Assembly (NCBI GenBank): GCA_965200245.1
Contig: CBDATS010000015.1
Location: 64,001-128,000 of the forward strand
Length of the DNA stretch: 64,000 bases
Source of the DNA: a bacterium
GTDB lineage: Bacteria > UBA8248
Direction: 5' to 3'
In this document: piece by piece, positions 5,373-39,572 of the stretch
How the letters are laid out: each line of letters starts with the position of its first letter
Position numbering within the stretch: position 1 is the stretch's first letter
Position numbers and translations under genes: made by a program
The notes under the pieces: model-generated
Told to the model about the DNA's origin: nothing
Seen by the model: the letters and a program-made list of their open reading frames with translations, nothing else
Database searches by the model: none

Positions 5373-6013
5373 TGGGGAGTTACATACTTAAATCCGCAAG
5401 TCTCAATCCCTTCATCTTGCGCGCCGGCCCCAACCGCATCCCTGGATATCATGCAGACGAACATCACCGTCATCACCGGAAGTTGTGTACGGGAATCGTC
5501 ATGACTCTTTCCTGCAAGACAGGGAACGTCTTCTGCAGACAAGAGGAGGGGTGATAACAGCCTCATTTTGGAAATATGCTCCTTCGGACGCCGGTTTCCC
5601 GGGAGAAGAGGGGGCATACGGACGAGGTTCCGAGAGTCTGTTTCTCAACAGAAAAACGTCGAAAAATTTCCTGCTTTCCCGTCGGAATGTCCCATATCCT
5701 GCTCATGATGACGATGCAAAAAAACGAAAGCGTCAGGATATCAAACCATACTCATTTCCCCAGGAAAGGAGACCAGGATGAAATCTATTTCCGAGATGCG
5801 CGAGCACCTGATCGGGAAGGCAGGCGACAGTGAGGAGTTCCGTGCCCGTCTGATCTCCGAACCGAGGGCCGTGGTATCCGGGGAATTCGGAATCGCGGTG
5901 CCGGAGACTTTCAACCTGCATGTGATGGAAGACGACGCCGAGAACAGCTATCTCGTCCTCCCGCCTTCGTCCCGGCTCACCGAGGAAGAACTGGAAGCTG
6001 CTGAAGGCGCATA
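5373..6013 (+). repeat. 641-bp duplicated cassette, copy 1 (upstream region plus NHLP precursor leader)
   Basis: Colinear match to the reverse complement of 37343-37983; about 13 mismatches in 236 nt of coding part, more in the upstream part. Confidence 0.95.
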
Positions 6014-6023
6014 CTGGATGTAA
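5778..6023 (+). CDS. NHLP-leader (proteusin-type) RiPP precursor, predicted core YWM
   Basis: LIGKA..EEFRARLISEP...LHVMED...YLVLPP..LTEEELEAAEGA nitrile-hydratase-like leader; AGGAG RBS. Confidence 0.88.
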   Translation: MKSISEMREHLIGKAGDSEEFRARLISEPRAVVSGEFGIAVPETFNLHVMEDDAENSYLVLPPSSRLTEEELEAAEGAYWM

Positions 6024-33395: not shown

Positions 33396-33571
33396 GAAAA
33401 CCTCCTCGGAAAAAAGTTGATTATTGATGATGCCTTGAATGCCGCGGCATCTTAGCCTGTATTTGCGTTTTTCGGGAAGCCTTGCACGGCATCGCCGCGC
33501 CTTGCGAGTAGCCCCTGCCTTTTGTCAAAATGCGTTTCTTTTCGGGATGTGTACTCTGAGACGGGGGAGAG

Positions 33572-34642
33572 GTGGAAGTGGCTCGCATTGCGGTGGTGCG
33601 CGGAGACGGAATAGCGAACGAGGTGATGCCCGAGGCGGAGGAGACACTCAAGGCGGCGGCCGATGCAGCCTCGTTTCAGGTGGAATTCGAATACTTCGAC
33701 TGGGGAAGCGATCGCTATCTGGAGCAGGGGAGGGGGATGCCCGAAGACGGCTGTGATACCTTGCGGGAGGGCTTCGACGCCGTGTTTCAGGGTGCCATCG
33801 GCGACCCGAGGGTCCCCGGATCCATTGTACAGGAACAGGTGATTCTCGGAGTCCGTTTCGGGCTGGATCTCTACGCCAACATCCGTCCTTGCAGGCTCTA
33901 CCATGAGGATCTGACACCGCTCAAGAACATGGGGGCAGGTGACATCGATCACGTCGTGGTACGTGAAAACACTGAGGGTCTTTTCGTGAACGTGGGAGGG
34001 TTTTTCAAGCAGGGCACGAAAGACGAAGTAGCCCTGCAGGAAGAGGTGCATACCTACAAAGGGGTGGAGCGCGTTATTCGGGCATCGTTCGGGTTTGCAA
34101 GGCGGCATAAGCGCAGAAAAGTCACCATGGCGGACAAGGCGAGCGGGCTGCGCTACGCGGGCGGAATTTGGCGGCGCGTGTTCGATGAAGTACGGGCAGA
34201 TTTCGAAGATATTGAATCTGAGGCGATGCACATCGACGCCGTGGCGATGGAGGTGATCCAGCACCCGTCGGAATTCGACGTTATCGTGACCAACAACATG
34301 TTCGGGGACATTCTGAGCGACATTACTTCGGGCTTGGTGGGCGGGCTGGGACTGGCACCTTCCGCGAACGTGAACCTGGAAGGCGTCTCGATGTTCGAGC
34401 CTGTCCACGGCACGGCGCCCGATATCTACGGACGCGGCATCGCAAACCCCATGGCGGCTATATTGACGGGCGCTCTCTTGCTGGAGCATCTAGGCTGCGG
34501 AGCGGGCGGAACCGCCATGCGGCGAGCGGTGGAGGAAGCCATAGCGCATGGCGAGCGCACGGCGGACATCGGAGGTCGTCTGAACACGAAAGAATGTGGC
34601 GATGCTATAAGAAATAGACTAGGAAATGATAGCTCAAAATAA
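33572..34642 (+). CDS. Isocitrate/isopropylmalate dehydrogenase family (LeuB or tartrate dehydrogenase-like)
   Basis: GDGIANEV, YANIRP, VRENTEG, NMFGDILSD, FEPVHGTAPDI. Confidence 0.88.
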   Translation: MEVARIAVVRGDGIANEVMPEAEETLKAAADAASFQVEFEYFDWGSDRYLEQGRGMPEDGCDTLREGFDAVFQGAIGDPRVPGSIVQEQVILGVRFGLDLYANIRPCRLYHEDLTPLKNMGAGDIDHVVVRENTEGLFVNVGGFFKQGTKDEVALQEEVHTYKGVERVIRASFGFARRHKRRKVTMADKASGLRYAGGIWRRVFDEVRADFEDIESEAMHIDAVAMEVIQHPSEFDVIVTNNMFGDILSDITSGLVGGLGLAPSANVNLEGVSMFEPVHGTAPDIYGRGIANPMAAILTGALLLEHLGCGAGGTAMRRAVEEAIAHGERTADIGGRLNTKECGDAIRNRLGNDSSK

Positions 34643-35047
34643 TCCACTGTTGTTGCGATGGCTGAGAAACAGGTCGACACTCATTCTGTGCCACAACAGA
34701 GGAGGCGACGACCCGACAGCCAGTGAGCACATTGCGGAGCCGTCGGAATCGGCAGGCAACGAATCCCAGTATTTCCAGACACCCGGGTAGAGTATCGTCT
34801 TGCAAAGGTGCTGGCGCGTCCTTTCCACGATATCTTGTGCGCTAGAGTCGTCAATCTCCGACAATAAAAGAACGCCCGCCATTGCGAAAAAAGGGCTCTC
34901 CTCGTGCAACAGAACATGCCCGTCAGGTAACTGCACTACATAGAAAGGCCAGCACCCGTCATCATCAACGAATGAGTTGAGAAACGTCAGGCCCTTGTCG
35001 ATTGCACTGCGCATGCAACGCAGTGTGTGAGAAGGGAGGTTCATCAC
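34634..35047 (-). pseudogene. Truncated class II terpene cyclase / prenyltransferase-squalene oxidase repeat-like protein
   Basis: AIDKGLTFL...DDDGCW QW-like motif; WKYW..LPADSDGSA at the DxDD position; ends after 137 aa at the leuB-like stop. Confidence 0.6.
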
Positions 35048-35059
35048 ACTCGGCTTTTC

Positions 35060-36196
35060 TCAAAACAGGAATTGCGCACCGGTATAAGCTTTTACCAACA
35101 CTTTTTGGTCTTGAACCACGAGTTTGAAGTGGTTCAGGCCCGACAGGAACGGGACAAACTCACCTTCATGGATGAAATATTCCCAGCGCGCCATTTTTTT
35201 GAGACCCTTGGCCTTGGAAGGCACACACCATCCCTCTGCCACACAAAGATCGATGAAATCGTGCTCGATATCGTATACCAGAGTCCGCCACGGCCGAGCG
35301 AAGTGCAATTCGAAACCGATACGCGGAGAAATGCTACTGCCGGTGACATCCAGGGCCACCGTCAGTCTTTCGAAGCCGAGGGAAGCCAACAACAATACAT
35401 CGGTGACAGTATCACATGGTCCTTCCCATCCAATACGGCCGAGATAATCTGCGACCTCACCGGGTGGCATGGGGAACAAAAAGCGAATTGCCCTGAATTT
35501 CCGGGCGGGTAGCACTCCGATATGGGTAATTCGAGCTCCGGCGGGCAATTCGTCTACGATGCGGAACGCCGTGCGGAACTCTTCCTTGTCTTCCTGCCAG
35601 TTCGCAGCGGCGCACGCAACCGCAACAATCACGCCGGAATTGGCGATCTGGTATGGTGGCACGTGGTCCGGCAAATCTTCCCTTTCGTCCACTGCGGGAG
35701 TCAGGAACAGGCCCGGAAGGAACTGATCACTGTCATTGCTGTCGATGATATCCCATTCCAGAAGGACTCTATCGAACCAGCGGGACAGGAAACTGTCGCG
35801 CCTCTGCAACTCATGCAACAGCCTGCCCAGGCTTCGATCGGTCGCGCAGGCCTCGTTGGACTGGCCGTGCTTGACCGGCCAGGCGGCGATCGGCGAATCG
35901 GGTGGCACATTCATAAAAAAGTCGCAGAGCGGTAGCGGGTCGTCCAGGCGCATCTCGAAACCGAACATCGAATGCGCAGCACAGGCAGGTAGCGTCGCCC
36001 CGCAAAGCGCAAGCCGTTCGAGGGCTTGCGAGCCAATCAGTTCGTCGGGCATGCACGATGCGGCACAACGGAGTGCCGCATCAAATGATCGAGTCTCATG
36101 GCTATCCTGCGCCGATGCCTTCCCTGTTTCCTTGCTGCTTATCGTCCGTCTTTCGCAAGGCACCGGGATACCTGACTTAGCCGGAGGCATACCCAT
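35060..36196 (-). CDS. Hypothetical protein, putative (ABBA-like) peptide prenyltransferase
   Basis: Intact ~378-aa ORF (start uncertain); FGFEMRL, LLEWD, LDV...PRIGFEL, NHFKL...VKAY; lies between NHLP precursor and cyclase-like gene. Confidence 0.55.
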   Translation of the reverse strand: MGMPPAKSGIPVPCERRTISSKETGKASAQDSHETRSFDAALRCAASCMPDELIGSQALERLALCGATLPACAAHSMFGFEMRLDDPLPLCDFFMNVPPDSPIAAWPVKHGQSNEACATDRSLGRLLHELQRRDSFLSRWFDRVLLEWDIIDSNDSDQFLPGLFLTPAVDEREDLPDHVPPYQIANSGVIVAVACAAANWQEDKEEFRTAFRIVDELPAGARITHIGVLPARKFRAIRFLFPMPPGEVADYLGRIGWEGPCDTVTDVLLLASLGFERLTVALDVTGSSISPRIGFELHFARPWRTLVYDIEHDFIDLCVAEGWCVPSKAKGLKKMARWEYFIHEGEFVPFLSGLNHFKLVVQDQKVLVKAYTGAQFLF

Positions 36197-36384
36197 TTGA
36201 GTCCGCACTGAAGTGGAAACGATCCGGTGACGCGGGCAGCATTTGGTTATATAGTATGTACATCGACAGATGTCGATGTTGCTTCTGGGTGAGCGACCAC
36301 ACGGAACTTGATCCAATCACAATGGATGAATTCATTCTTTCTCTTGGTAAGGGGAAGAATTGAACTGGAATACCCACCCTCGGT

Positions 36385-36537
36385 CTAGTAGATTCCTTCT
36401 CCGCCGCCGTATCCACCTGTAAGCTGCTCCATATCCTCATCTATTTCGGTCAACTTTATGGGGAAAGTTCTTGTCTGTGAATTCCATGAAACGGGAGACT
36501 GGTTCTGCCTTGCGTTTGATCAGGGATTCTCATTCAT
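36385..36537 (-). pseudogene. Decayed RiPP precursor remnant (double-glycine end, core YGGGEGIY)
   Basis: Reads PIKLTEIDEDMEQLTGG-YGGGEGIY*; upstream part broken by an in-frame TGA. Confidence 0.45.
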
Positions 36538-37059
36538 TTTCCAACCCTGCCCTTCTTCCCTTCCAGGGCTTCTCCACTGATAAACGGAGTTCTCATCAGG
36601 CTGACCGGTGAACGCGCCCAATAACCTTCAATTGCAGCAATACGGCTTCCAGGGCTCATACGTGTGTCTGCCATTCGTTCCCCTGTTCGCTTTATCTCGT
36701 TTTGAACCTCTCGAATATCTCCCTCATTCAGGTATGAATAAAGACTGTCAGGGCTATCCCTATACCTGTGAGAGTAAGTATATCCATACTCTCATCCCCA
36801 ATTTATTGAGGCGTTTGGTGTAGGCAATATATGAGAAGACGAGCGACTAGGTCAATCTCCGCGTCGGAATCAAGGCGCGGAGGTACAAGATTTGCGCAAA
36901 TGGCCGGTAGCGTTGATGCGCGACCCATTGTCCAGTTGTCTCGCACTGAACAGCTGCATGTCGTTCGGATGGACCGCCTCTGCCGATCCGGCCCGGAGAT
37001 AGTCCGGATTCAAGTGCTGGCAACGGATCTCATCGCCATGGAAGATACCGGATTGAGGC

Positions 37060-37241
37060 TGCGTGACAGCGGAGTCGATGAACCTTTCCGCGGCGTTCAG
37101 ACGACCCTGACGATGGCCACCCTGGCTGGGCTTCGCCCTGTGCCCGTCGTACTTCCGACCGGGAGTGTCACGGCTCTCCGCCTTCAACGCTTCTTCCACG
37201 ACCCGCACGCCTGCGAGGGACATGTGTGCGGGTTTGTTCAT
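37060..37241 (-). mobile_element. IS256-family transposase N-terminal remnant
   Basis: VVEEALKAESRDTPGRKYDGH...GHRQGRLNAAERFIDSAVTQ resembles the IS256 EEALEAE...GR.YY.H...RNG.R.GRLKTAEG.I motif; no DDE domain. Confidence 0.55.
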
Positions 37242-37323
37242 CGTTAATACCCCGGCCAGTCATAAAATCCGCCGTGGACGGACGTTAGCTGTTTTTCATC
37301 ATACAGGTAAGACCTGCGGAGAA

Positions 37324-37578
37324 TCAAAAAATATCGAGACGATATGCGCCATGAGCGCCTTCCAGCTCTTCCTCGGTGAGCCGGGGCGAAGGCGGAAGGA
37401 CGAGATAGCTGTTTTCGGCGTCGTCTTCCATCACATGCAGGTTGAAAGTCTCCGGCACCGCGATTCCGAACTCCCCGGATACCACGGCCCTCGGTTCGGA
37501 GATAAGACGGGCACGGAACTCCTCACTGTCGCCTGCCTTCCCGATCAGGTGCTCGCGCATCCCGGAAAGAGATTTCAC
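37324..37578 (-). CDS. NHLP-leader RiPP precursor, predicted core YRLDIF
   Basis: Leader differs from 5778-6023 at only 5 residues; GTG start, AGGAG RBS. Confidence 0.88.
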   Translation of the reverse strand: MKSLSGMREHLIGKAGDSEEFRARLISEPRAVVSGEFGIAVPETFNLHVMEDDAENSYLVLPPSPRLTEEELEGAHGAYRLDIF

Positions 37579-37983
37579 TTGGGTCTCCTGTCCTGGAGTA
37601 ACGAGTATGGTTTGATGCCCCGACGCTTTCGCCTTTTTGCATCGTCATCATGAACAGCGTATGGGATGTCCCGATGGGAAAGCAGGTAATTTTTGACGTT
37701 TTTCTGTTGAGAAACAGACTCTCGGAACCCTGTCCATAGTCCCCCTCTTCTCCCGGGAAACCGGCGGCCGAAGTAGCCATATTTCCAGAATGATGCCGTT
37801 ATGACCCCTCCTCCTGTGTGCAAAAGACGTTCCCTGTCTTGCAGGAAAGAGTCATGACGACTTCCGCACACAAATTCCGGAAGTGACGGTGATGTCCGTC
37901 TGCATGATGTTCAAAGGGTGATTGGGGCCGGTACGCAATATAAAGGGATTGGGACTTGCGGATTCAAGTGTGTAATTCCCCCA
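37343..37983 (-). repeat. 641-bp duplicated cassette, copy 2
   Basis: Reverse-complement match to 5373-6013. Confidence 0.95.
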
Positions 37984-38100
37984 AAACATCCCGATCAAAT
38001 CGCTCGGTTCATTTACGAAATCGAATATGCATATGAGGACGACTTCGAATGGATTAAGGTAGAATAGCCATGTGGAATTGTTCAAATATAAATTCAGGAG

Positions 38101-38466
38101 ATGAACATGCCGGAGAAATCAGTTGTGGACGTTGCAAAAGCGGACTTCAAGTCCGTGGCCTGGGGGCAGACAAAAATTCTGGTCAGCCCTGTAGTAAACG
38201 GTTCCGAACATGTGCGCGTTGGGCTGACGGAGTACGACCCTGCTACCCCGCATGAGCCACATGCGCACCCGGGTCAGGAGGAAGTTATCTGGGTGTTGAG
38301 TGGGCAGGGCTATACGGAGACGCATGGTGAGAAAATCGACCTGTATCCGGGGGCAGTGGCGTTCATCCCCGCAGGTATGGAGCACAAGACGGCGGCTGTC
38401 GGCGGAAAGATGCAGGCCATCATTATCAAGGGGCCGGTTCGGGACGCCGATGGTGTCTTGAGTTAG
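38101..38466 (+). CDS. Cupin domain protein
   Basis: HAHPGQEEVIWVLSGQG, FIPAGMEH. Confidence 0.9.
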   Translation: MNMPEKSVVDVAKADFKSVAWGQTKILVSPVVNGSEHVRVGLTEYDPATPHEPHAHPGQEEVIWVLSGQGYTETHGEKIDLYPGAVAFIPAGMEHKTAAVGGKMQAIIIKGPVRDADGVLS

Positions 38467-38525
38467 AAGGTACTGAAGAGAAGAGTGCCGCCCGCTTGGG
38501 AAGGTCGATGTCCCGGGGCGAGTTT

Positions 38526-39572
38526 TCAGGGAGCGGAAATCAAAACCCGATCGTCCTGGACTTCCAGTTTCGTTCCGAAAGGCTCGTTCAACGCGTTCAT
38601 GACGTCTACGATCCTGCGACCTGCGCCCCGGTTGGGAGAGTGAAGCCTGGGCCTGGAGAATACGCCGGCAGTCACGGGGATCAGATACGGTTCTTTCACC
38701 CCCGTTTTCGTCAGGGTACAACCGAACAGTAAGGTGTCGTGCGTTTCGTCGGTGAAGAAGGCGATGTCGAAGTCGAATATCAGATTTCCCATGCTGTAGA
38801 TGATGGGCACACCCTTGTAGAATTCAACAGCCTGGAGAACGTGCGGGTGACCGCCTAGAACCAGGTTCGCGCCTGCGGCGATGCTGGCGTGGGCGATTTC
38901 TCTCTCGAAGGCCATCACCTCGTGCGTCATGCTTGTTCCCCAGTGGTGGTTCACGATCACCAAGTCCGTATTTTTCCTTGAATTCCTGATGTCGCGCTTC
39001 ATGCGTGTCAGGTGAGCGGGTTCCGCCCAGGTGTCGATTCGCGGCGGGGTGCCCGGATATTCGGAAAGGTCGCGCCACGGACGGTAGGCCGTGTGTGCAC
39101 GGACAGGATTTACGCCCGGGCCGGCTGCCGTGGCCTCGAAACCTCTCGGGATGACGGAGGAATACGCAAGAAAGCTTATCCTGAGGCCCCCGCGCTCAAT
39201 CATAACTGGCTTTCTCGCCTGCGCCAGATTCATGCCGCCGCCCACAAGTTCGACGCCCAGGGAATTCATGAGCGACATGGTTTGCGCAAAGGCTTCTTCT
39301 CCATAGTCGAGAACATGATTGTTCGCAAAGGCCATGACGTCGAAACCGGCCTCTGTGAGGGCGTGGGCCATGTCCGGCGCGCCGCGGAGGAGAATTTTCT
39401 CTGGCGCTGGTTTCCCGTCACGGGAGAGGGGCAGTTCCAGGTTGGCGAATGTGACGTCCGCATTGCGGAGGAGGGGAATCAGATTACCGAAAGCACCTTT
39501 CGGATCCGCACGGTTTATCGCAATGTCTCCTCCCGCAGTAAGTGTGGGACCTGCTTGAGAGCGGGGGGACAT
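38526..39572 (-). CDS. CapA (PGA_cap) family metallophosphatase-like protein
   Basis: GGDI, ANLE, ANNHVLDYG, HHWG, GGHPHVLQ, YSMGN. Confidence 0.92.
   Translation of the reverse strand: MSPRSQAGPTLTAGGDIAINRADPKGAFGNLIPLLRNADVTFANLELPLSRDGKPAPEKILLRGAPDMAHALTEAGFDVMAFANNHVLDYGEEAFAQTMSLMNSLGVELVGGGMNLAQARKPVMIERGGLRISFLAYSSVIPRGFEATAAGPGVNPVRAHTAYRPWRDLSEYPGTPPRIDTWAEPAHLTRMKRDIRNSRKNTDLVIVNHHWGTSMTHEVMAFEREIAHASIAAGANLVLGGHPHVLQAVEFYKGVPIIYSMGNLIFDFDIAFFTDETHDTLLFGCTLTKTGVKEPYLIPVTAGVFSRPRLHSPNRGAGRRIVDVMNALNEPFGTKLEVQDDRVLISAP

Follow-up and report, generated by a model that had tools for sequence, protein, structure and literature searches.

A partly eroded candidate cassette for prenylated peptides, with an NHLP precursor, a predicted ABBA-fold prenyltransferase and a truncated cyclase-like gene, in a bacterium of the UBA8248 lineage

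Peptides bearing cyclised terpenes were reportedly first obtained from fused enzymes acting on tryptophan (Trp), in work by Hubrich et al. in Chem in 2024. In this article, we set beside such systems a locus at positions 34634-37983, on the minus strand, of a 64,000-nucleotide (nt) stretch of bacterial DNA (GTDB lineage Bacteria; UBA8248; assembly GCA_965200245.1, contig CBDATS010000015.1, positions 64,001 to 128,000), hereafter called the window. At this locus, a precursor gene of the NHLP (proteusin) type is accompanied by a gene for a putative prenyltransferase and by the beginning of a class II terpene cyclase-like gene, a combination suggestive of a pathway for peptides that are made on the ribosome and then modified after translation (RiPPs). 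Another point of reference is provided by the prochlorosins, in which one enzyme serves many precursors combining a conserved leader with hypervariable cores. Prochlorosins are the subject of the abstract of PMC10783134.

NctPC consists of an ABBA-barrel prenyltransferase fused to an MstE-like cyclase and, according to a 2026 review, attaches geranylgeranyl to Trp, after which the chain is cyclised (PMC13290415). The accessible text of this review has all characterised trans-IDS-like peptide enzymes taking Trp, and holds no tyrosine (Tyr)-linked case among the characterised prenyltransferase-cyclase maturases, which act on Trp (PMC13290415). MppC is a leader-dependent ABBA prenyltransferase for which the Nif11 leader has to be complete, LxxxxL motif included (Wakeel et al. 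2025, PMC12715784), and Tyr is among the acceptors of the cyanobactin prenyltransferases (PMC12715784). PalQ, a prenyltransferase of a different fold, acts on an NHLP precursor (accessible part of the PalQ paper). The srp clusters are characterised by the precursor SrpE with the core LCCCW, the YcaO protein SrpC and the brominase SrpI (accessible parts of PMC10858898, PMC10286304 and a bioRxiv preprint). As far as these texts are accessible, prenyl is unmentioned in the main text of the preprint and occurs in PMC10286304 only in the title of a reference, and PMC10858898 does not mention a prenyltransferase.

We consider it probable that the window locus is a partly eroded three-gene RiPP cassette, composed of an NHLP precursor, a stand-alone ABBA peptide prenyltransferase and a stand-alone monodomain class II cyclase. 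The list of open reading frames (ORFs) and the raw sequence give, in this order on the minus strand, the precursor, an ORF of 123 amino acids (aa), a 44-codon frame, an ORF of 378 aa and an ORF of 137 aa. Below, G000 denotes the genome of the window, C-numbers its contigs, L-numbers loci and G002 a sister genome. The features are:

37324-37578, minus strand: NHLP (proteusin-type) precursor, 84 aa (ORF, TIGR03793, NHase_alpha)
37327-37344, minus strand: predicted core YRLDIF (position of the G[GAS] site and alignment of 31 genome copies; cleavage after GA presumed)
35060-36196, minus strand: predicted ABBA-fold prenyltransferase, 378 aa, intact (predicted fold, no family model)
34634-35047, minus strand: truncated cyclase-like ORF, 137 aa (60% identity to residues 1-135 of intact proteins)
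34634-34642, no strand: deletion or rearrangement junction (blastn; DNA contigs of two studies bridge the site)
37341-37980, no strand: 640-bp repeated module of 5' region, leader and Tyr codon (blastn and base-by-base comparison)
37059-37223, minus strand: remnant of a Mutator/IS256 transposase N-terminus within ORF 36870-37241 (identity to a Transposase_mut segment)
36385-36456, minus strand: possible older leader end and core, unconfirmed (translation, weak match to L032)
5778-6023, plus strand: second precursor, 81 aa, core YWM (ORF; same leader family as 37324-37578)
33572-34642, plus strand: Iso_dh gene, convergent and complete (Pfam profile positions 2-348 of 348)

The predicted prenyltransferase and the cyclase-like gene

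Within a long ORF at 35060-36316, the first ATG opens a 378-aa protein (35060-36196) that is uninterrupted, aligns end to end with its homologues and ends in NHFKLVVQDQKVLVKAYTGAQFLF. An earlier reading made from the letters alone (hereafter the sequence-only reading) had described this ORF as intact and had expected an ABBA barrel; this is indeed the fold obtained with AlphaFold2, Foldseek and VIA-align. The AlphaFold2 model (predicted local distance difference test, pLDDT, 82.8; predicted template-modelling score, pTM, 0.82) contains five alpha-alpha-beta-beta units behind a disordered N-terminus of 34 residues. Compared with the PDB by Foldseek, it yielded 93 matches at E<=1e-3; among the matches listed, all are aromatic prenyltransferases, headed by AmbP1 (E 7.6e-7) and including AmbP3, EpzP, NphB/Orf2, FunA, DMATS1, FamD1, CymD and FgaPT2, as well as the peptide prenyltransferases LimF (E 6.3e-5) and PagF (E 1.1e-4). 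VIA-align placed 133 of 998 chains at Z>=8, the 50 matches listed all being aromatic prenyltransferases, and aligned 297-300 residues with MpnD and FunA (Z 16.9, root-mean-square deviation, rmsd, 4.5). By its predicted structure, the 378-aa protein is an ABBA prenyltransferase barrel with ten strands in five units.

A word-based search with this protein returned eight other proteins, all without name and without Pfam domain. Among 1.84 billion representatives, the A1 profile, built from eleven sequences, picked up 4091 proteins at E<=1e-3, of which 1170 also pass E<=1e-30; as judged from these matches, the prenyltransferase represents a large family that lacks a Pfam or NCBIfam model. In a language-model atlas its nearest neighbours are unnamed clusters (0.95), followed by those of Trp_DMAT, DUF5838 and PTase_Orf2 (0.88-0.89). 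Polar residues invariant in A1 (E81, D92, E147, D149, R232, H356, K358, K369 and Y371, with R238 and D283 nearly invariant) sit on or beside predicted barrel strands, several as i/i+2 pairs, as would be expected of an active site in the barrel lumen, their placement being that of the predicted model. A predicted complex between prenyltransferase residues 35-378 (A3) and the precursor (A4) obtained a score of 0.20 and a mark of 0.32 and was used neither way. A search for fused or longer forms found none at 740-2110 aa and no prenyltransferase-cyclase fusion at 194-739 aa. Three proteins of 679-718 aa (P0080, P0092 and P0108), devoid of Pfam domains, each contain two stretches that match the prenyltransferase profile and look like tandem prenyltransferase-prenyltransferase fusions; P0080, the only one of the three compared, shows no likeness to the cyclase profile.

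The cyclase-like ORF starts 12 nt past the stop codon of the prenyltransferase gene. The sequence-only reading had recognised in it a QW-like motif and, at the DxDD position, the string PADSDGSA. Both are present, the former as DKGLTFLNSFVDDDGCW, and are judged by the definitions of the DxDD(T/S)A general acid and of the QW motif that we take to be those of the squalene-hopene cyclase literature. Direct family matches of the 137-aa ORF are faint (squalene-cyclase model TIGR01787, E 0.004). It is, however, 60% identical over 135 residues to a 318-aa protein on contig C8 (L001:5755-6711), which extends another 180 residues, and a 317-aa protein of locus L031 (L031:10081-11034) likewise extends beyond it. 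Nucleotide similarity between the window and the C8 gene ends, by blastn, at 34637, the stop codon, and the ORF itself ends nine bases within the 3' end of the Iso_dh gene. Because the similarity ends at the stop codon, the window ORF is the first 43% of a cyclase gene that was cut at the Iso_dh junction and lost its 3' 57%. Aligned with its relatives it retains 137 of 317-318 residues, so that no complete cyclase domain is present in the window and, the gene being cut, cyclisation is presumably lost at this locus. An assembly artefact can be dismissed since DNA contigs of two studies run across the locus: those of two runs, one of which may be the source sample, cover 33400-35948 with 0 differences and 33400-36825 with 2.

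The claim of a class II cyclase-like gene at 34634-35047 thus stands as to fold, by way of the intact C8 paralogue, but not as to a whole gene. The model of this paralogue is moderate (pLDDT 66.3, pTM 0.71). Its Foldseek matches include 8pak, titled squalene-hopene cyclase, a monodomain protein of 345 aa from Cystobacter (E 5.4e-6), drimenol and drimenyl-diphosphate synthases, and MstE (E 2.9e-4, TM 0.61). With VIA-align, the drimenyl-diphosphate synthases, MstE and the monodomain cyclases reached Z 17.5-18.8 (18.8 for the drimenyl-diphosphate synthase AsDMS; 18.4 for MstE over 278 residues, rmsd 4.2), whereas generic alpha/alpha sugar enzymes stayed at Z<=14.5. Among the 29 best entries, all but one, an unnamed Actinoplanes protein, are cyclases of terpenes, squalene or oxidosqualene. 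The cyclase sequence profile likewise matches drimenol synthase (E 4.1e-5) and squalene-hopene cyclase (1e-3). Judged on the modelled fold of the intact paralogue, the family is that of monodomain class II terpene cyclases. Its aspartate (Asp) motif reads LPxDxD(S/G/D)(T/S)A, the central Asp, candidate for the general acid, being invariant in all eight aligned homologues; the QW-like stretch G-x-x-F-L...G-x-W is invariant among them too.

Precursors, cores and relatives of the locus

The 84-aa precursor ends in LTEEELEGAHGA followed by YRLDIF, as the sequence-only reading had it, and is recognised by the leader_NHLP model TIGR03793 with 63.4 bits against a cut-off of 50.9 (E 1.3e-17) and by Pfam NHase_alpha (E 4.2e-10); TIGR03793 matched none of 14 control genomes. 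Its start codon is GTG, with an AGGAG ahead that is kept in 20 unique copies, and the leader end comprises an LxxxxL motif (LTEEEL) and then GA. The third core proposed earlier, YWM, belongs to the 81-aa precursor at 5778-6023, whose identity to the first is 94% over 68 residues and 91% in a whole-protein alignment; no enzyme gene adjoins it. A 640-bp module (37341-37980) carrying the first precursor's leader is a 100% match to G000:C5:328952-329591, with both borders sharp and the 3' border lying one base past the Tyr codon, the first codon of the core.

More than 25 places in G000 carry the leader together with about 230 nt upstream at 78-100% identity. In this genome, the cores thus diversify alongside an unchanging leader module. 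The upstream region of the family-A precursors (37579-37810 in the window, and 19 other unique copies) is conserved, including CGGCCGCCGGTTTCCCGGGA and the AGGAG. It gave no RNA structure signal (Alifold -6.7, z about 0 with a mononucleotide-shuffle control) and no Rfam match; from its conservation, it may be a shared promoter or regulatory region.

Between the precursor and the prenyltransferase gene lie two further frames. ORF 36870-37241 (123 aa) has no Pfam or NCBIfam family of its own, but over residues 7-61 it shares 55% identity with G000:C15:151860-152384 (55-58 aa); since this homologous segment is Transposase_mut (E 1.4e-17), the insertion sequence remnant announced by the sequence-only reading is real. 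The 44-codon stop-to-stop frame at 36385-36519 ends in KLTEIDEDMEQLTGG followed by YGGGEGIY and resembles a leader end. The decayed precursor seen there (36385-36456) could not be confirmed: nothing NHLP-like stands upstream in frame, and what comes closest is the end of the leader in L032, a weak match (E 0.03 in a very small database).

The genome G000 (3.68 Mb, 15 contigs) is 95.8% complete and 8.1% contaminated. Some stretches are duplicated between contigs: C15:1-5000 mirrors the start of C2 (1-5500), and the same is seen at C4:571k and C8:199k. Copy counts are upper bounds because of this duplication and the contamination, hence unique cores were counted. TIGR03793 gave 39 matches in G000, 34 of them over the cut-off; at one and the same threshold, G000 has 38 NHLP matches, against 1-9 apiece for the 22 other members of its genus. 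Of the 38 segments, 31 have a G[GAS] cleavage site that could be placed by pattern, and seven are truncated or frameshifted. The 26 distinct tails obtained, less a 45-aa read-through tail and an empty one, make 24 unique cores (3-15 aa, 215 residues). Relative to long frames of the genome, these are enriched in Trp (9.3% vs 1.1%, p 3e-13), Tyr (13% vs 2.1%, p 2e-14) and Asp (13% vs 5.1%, p 6e-6). All 24 have Trp or Tyr among their first four residues, 15 contain Trp and one contains cysteine (Cys). The enrichment and the early aromatic residue indicate that the cores are selected sequences and not random read-through. The proposal that cores are 3-8 aa long and start with Tyr, made from three cores in the window, does not hold genome-wide, Tyr being first in 9/24; what the cores have in common is an aromatic residue, Tyr or Trp, no later than position four. 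As a common property of these sequences, the early aromatic residue fits aromatic prenylation.

About seven paralogues of the prenyltransferase, plus fragments, exist in G000, four of which are uninterrupted: the window copy, C2:5675-6748, C2:7329-8597 and C8:325395-326591. Precursors adjoin at least five paralogue loci, those beside the other copies being at C2 (NLYY, with a P450), C8:326k (two in tandem), C5:368k (EWVWH) and C4:1314k (two). The window copy is the only uninterrupted prenyltransferase in G000 beside a precursor of the expanded leader family. Clustering of all ORFs that lie at most 4 kb from one of the 38 NHLP segments left the prenyltransferase (12 segments) and ABC proteins as the sole recurrent neighbours. 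A radical-SAM cyclophane or P450 cross-link as main chemistry was rejected on this ground, the prenyltransferase being, besides the ABC proteins, the only recurrent enzyme neighbour, and the P450 is present only with the NLYY/IYY precursor family. In that family (L002:3836-8597 on G000:C2, and L030/L040 in G002, where the core end is IYY), the prenyltransferase gene lies directly downstream of the precursor gene, and in G000 the cytochrome P450 gene lies upstream of it; the Tyr-Tyr core end beside a P450 suggests an additional cross-link.

The sole TIGR03796 C39-ABC exporter above the cut-off (902 bits) is encoded at G000:C8:222528-224672, in a neighbourhood that comprises the intact cyclase and a broken prenyltransferase as well as an ABC2-type partner and a decayed precursor. 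Precursors with a GG-type site and a cognate C39 exporter are thus found in one genome, and cleavage is predicted from sequence.

Beyond G000, loci were collected by a search of genome contigs with the A3 profile; the single 378-aa protein as query found no relative among genome contigs, and the A3 profile none among metagenome contigs. Of the 22 other genomes of the genus, 15 have a member of the prenyltransferase family, as against 0/28 of the other genomes of the phylum examined. The cyclase occurs in 10 of the 22, and in all ten the two enzyme genes are about 5 kb apart. In keeping with the expectation that homologues would co-occur with NHLP precursors, one lies within 1.5 kb of the prenyltransferase homologue in 26 of 27 places in 15 sister genomes (the exception is L007), and this also holds for two distant metagenome-assembled genomes (MAGs). 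By their cores, the 27 places form three ortholog groups: LCCCW/LSCCW, about 18 residues of the type TQTWQDFANAWNSLNQNS, and IYY. The window enzyme is 28% identical to the prenyltransferase of L028, an LCCCW cluster, and 53-60% identical to P0002-P0005, which form its own subfamily with two readable loci. L031 (OZ241337.1, labelled Nitrospirales MAG) holds the intact trio: a prenyltransferase with 60% identity, the cyclase gene (317 aa) 15 nt later, and a precursor in divergent orientation with the core GHGGTYP behind GG. L032 (CBDATU010000017.1) has a prenyltransferase with 52% identity, cyclase debris and a precursor with the core YYNRLFD, and the near-identical core YYNRIFD occurs twice in G000. 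Directly upstream of the L031 trio (L031:3314-7856), a 1098-aa ORF and two small ORFs are, judging by their N-termini, presumably cas9, cas1 and cas2.

The srp-type cluster with LCCCW/LSCCW cores is represented by L028 (G002:C1:3142000-3160000) and also by L008-L015, L041, L049 and L051. In L028 it contains an HlyD fragment, an NHLP exporter pair, a 433-aa protein, a desaturase/GlnE-like protein, a fused E1-like/YcaO cyclodehydratase, the prenyltransferase and a convergent precursor; no halogenase was found in this 18-kb locus. The 433-aa protein (L028:6831-8132) is NHLP-like at its N-terminus (42.6 bits) and a cyclase at its C-terminus. Such fusions of the cyclase to an N-terminal NHLP-leader-like domain are present at 11 loci of 10 genomes (L028 and L017-L027; frames of 435-533 aa), and their leader-like domains score 42.6-49.2 bits with TIGR03793, below the cut-off. 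In L028, the place between this fusion and the YcaO protein is taken by the desaturase/GlnE-like protein (L028:8215-10611; 798 aa), with a fatty-acid desaturase domain (E 8.6e-27) and a GlnE-like nucleotidyltransferase region.

The genes flanking the window locus belong to ordinary metabolism (Ldh_2, cupin, PGA_cap, ABC ATPases), and Rfam returned a single, sub-threshold sRNA match on 34000-39000. DNA runs labelled sponge metagenome contain 0.81-0.97 of the sampled words.

Proposed chemistry and rival readings

In the reading that we favour, the prenyltransferase would bind the long NHLP leader, take a prenyl group off a prenyl diphosphate and attach it to an aromatic side chain close to where the short core begins; in the window, this core would be YRLDIF. 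That the 378-aa protein prenylates an aromatic residue had already been proposed, and we infer the same. The donor would probably be C15 or C20 (farnesyl or geranylgeranyl) in intact cassettes, because these carry a cyclase whose structural matches act, by their PDB titles, on C15/C20 chains; the acceptor in the subfamily of the window enzyme would most likely be Tyr. Where the cassette is intact, an Asp of the DxD(D)TA type in the cyclase would protonate the terminal double bond and the chain would fold into rings, and the C39-peptidase ABC exporter encoded elsewhere in the genome would cleave past GG or GA and export the peptide. Should the window locus yield a product at all, this would be a mini-peptide, prenylated and linear, provided that the C8 cyclase paralogue does not act in trans.

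Several observations weigh against this reading. At E<=0.1, the 378-aa protein has no match among the models of Pfam and NCBIfam, PTase_Orf2, Trp_DMAT and DUF5838 included, and its family profile finds no solved structure among PDB sequences (E 0.78); since neither a sequence model nor the sequence of a solved structure matches, the assignment as a prenyltransferase rests on the predicted fold. At the Asp motif, the window reads DSDGSA where L031 has DADDTA. No prenyl-diphosphate synthase gene lies beside the locus. To judge from its repeated module, the adjacent precursor may have arrived recently and, as the 640-bp module possibly landed of late, need not be the substrate of the 378-aa enzyme. 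The assembly of G000 is contaminated, and contig ends in it are redundant. For expression there is a weak hint, in that contigs from two metatranscriptomic libraries of a single study match the locus without differences, at 35150-35434, 35930-36802 and 37014-37273 for run X6 and at 34644-34860, 35926-36409, 36446-36798 and 37059-37269 for run X7; these contigs, however, give neither strand nor level and may reflect DNA carry-over. Uncovered stretches, such as 33400-34617 in both runs, were not interpreted, and run X8 (0.07 of words) was left unused. Finally, the locus shows signs of decay, and three of the seven paralogues of the genome are broken: TAG stops interrupt those at C8:216-217k and C4:1315k, a C-terminal frameshift the one at C5:367k.

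Because of these broken paralogues, an inactive relic is a real possibility, albeit one that we judge unlikely. The cassette would then be non-functional here, the prenyltransferase ORF open only through recent decay, the precursor a stray copy of its module, and there would be no product. This would account for the transposase remnant, the cyclase cut to 43%, the possibly dead older precursor reduced to 23 codons, and the stops and frameshifts of several paralogues, and L032 also has cyclase debris. Yet the 378-aa ORF is untruncated and conforms to each of the 19 columns that are invariant in an alignment with identities as low as 23%, the precursor is intact and has its start codon and AGGAG, and RNA-library contigs over the 5' part of the prenyltransferase gene point, weakly, the same way. 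Moreover, L032 and the window both keep the prenyltransferase and lose the cyclase, and this outlasting suggests that the prenyltransferase is kept for its own sake. The substrate or chemistry of a real enzyme might also differ from the one we favour, in that it could act on Trp precursors elsewhere, after leader removal, or with a group other than a long prenyl; we regard this as distinctly improbable. Trp is present in most of the unique cores (15/24) and is the acceptor of all characterised prenyltransferase-cyclase maturases in the accessible text of PMC13290415, the adjacent precursor sits on a mobile-looking module, and the cyanobactin prenyltransferases work leader-free (PMC12715784). 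On the other hand, at each of the three subfamily loci whose context could be read, the core contains Tyr and lacks Trp (YRLDIF, GHGGTYP and YYNRLFD), and Tyr-accepting ABBA peptide prenyltransferases are known (PMC12715784; accessible text of PMC13290415).

Very improbable, in our view, is a system not directed at peptides at all, in which a meroterpenoid, a small molecule, would arise from both enzymes, after the example of MstE with its prenylated benzoate, and precursors are adjacent by chance. The best structural matches of the cyclase (MstE and the drimenyl-diphosphate synthases) do act on small molecules, and those of the prenyltransferase are small-molecule indole prenyltransferases. 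Chance adjacency is difficult to reconcile with a neighbourhood of NHLP precursors that recurs at 26 of the 27 places and spans three precursor families, or with a sister-genome cyclase that is fused to an NHLP-like domain and lies among NHLP exporter and YcaO genes; nor are there genes for the biosynthesis of an aromatic small-molecule acceptor beside the window locus or L031.

Returning to the partly eroded peptide cassette, a wider scenario may be put forward, which we hold to be doubtful though conceivable. The window enzyme may serve a genome-wide library of at least 17 hypervariable Tyr/Trp mini-cores (24 unique across all leader families) on near-identical leaders, prochlorosin-like but prenylating; the ancestral cyclase (L031, C8) would build rings on a Tyr-linked prenyl, and the srp peptides of sponges would likewise be prenylated and cyclised, on their terminal Trp. 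The wider interest lies in an un-modelled prenyltransferase family, an intact minimal trio, a library of aromatic mini-cores and the presence of the family in srp-type clusters. The locus and its intact relatives appear to represent a minimal, split version of the pathway, with precursor, prenyltransferase and cyclase and with Trp-free, Tyr-containing cores of 6-7 residues, and a three-gene cassette with so short a core would be an easy target for heterologous expression and for the engineering of lipidated mini-peptides. The burst of precursors, specific to this genome, provides a natural experiment on the promiscuity of a leader-guided prenyltransferase, and the occurrence of the family in srp-type clusters suggests that a step is missing for peptides that are reported to be ubiquitous in sponge microbiomes and highly transcribed there. 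The degraded window copy has a lower value of its own, L031 and the C8 cyclase being better working material.

Comparison with described systems

The window locus is likened to NctPC by fold and gene context. As described in the accessible text on NctPC, both have an ABBA prenyltransferase of low similarity to the cyanobactin enzymes, an MstE-like cyclase and an NHLP/proteusin precursor, and the gene order in the window, prenyltransferase before cyclase, is that of the P and C domains. The co-occurrence of ABBA prenyltransferase, MstE-like cyclase and proteusin precursor is found intact in L031 and eroded in the window and L032. In contrast to the fused NctPC, however, the enzymes are encoded by two genes, 12 nt (window) or 15 nt (L031) apart; the cores of the window subfamily contain Tyr and no Trp, whereas NctPC geranylgeranylates Trp (PMC13290415, accessible text); no heterocyclase is present at the window locus, and the window cyclase is truncated. 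By this analogy, the system may be regarded as a split, Trp-less variant of the NctPC-type maturases.

With MppC, the locus shares a soluble ABBA prenyltransferase beside a long-leader precursor and an LxxxxL leader motif, LTEEEL in the window (PMC12715784). MppC differs in geranylating Trp on a lanthionine-cyclised core, whereas the system of the window locus has no LanM, pairs the prenyltransferase with a cyclase and has linear cores that are nearly free of Cys. PagF, PirF and LimF have the same fold as that predicted for the 378-aa protein, and Tyr is a known acceptor; unlike what is proposed here, they are leader-independent, act on macrocycles, use short donors and have no cyclase, and their sequence models miss the 378-aa protein. 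The C8 paralogue resembles MstE in size (about 320-350 aa) and as a single alpha/alpha domain (Z 18.4 over 278 residues), and its D103 has a position similar to that of D109 in PDB titles, the equivalence being unaligned; the two differ in sequence (13-14% identity), and the substrate of MstE is a prenylated benzoate, not a peptide.

As far as the accessible srp texts allow a comparison, the sister genomes share with the srp clusters an LCCCW/LSCCW precursor and a fused YcaO protein, with a member of the prenyltransferase family and a cyclase in the same cluster; the window locus differs in having neither a Cys core nor a YcaO gene, and the 18-kb locus of the sister genome in having no halogenase. 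The prochlorosins are resembled in near-identical leader modules, unrelated short cores and many orphan precursor genes per genome. They differ in leader class and lineage and in carrying lanthionine in place of the presumed prenylation, and one enzyme with many substrates, established there, is conjectural in G000.

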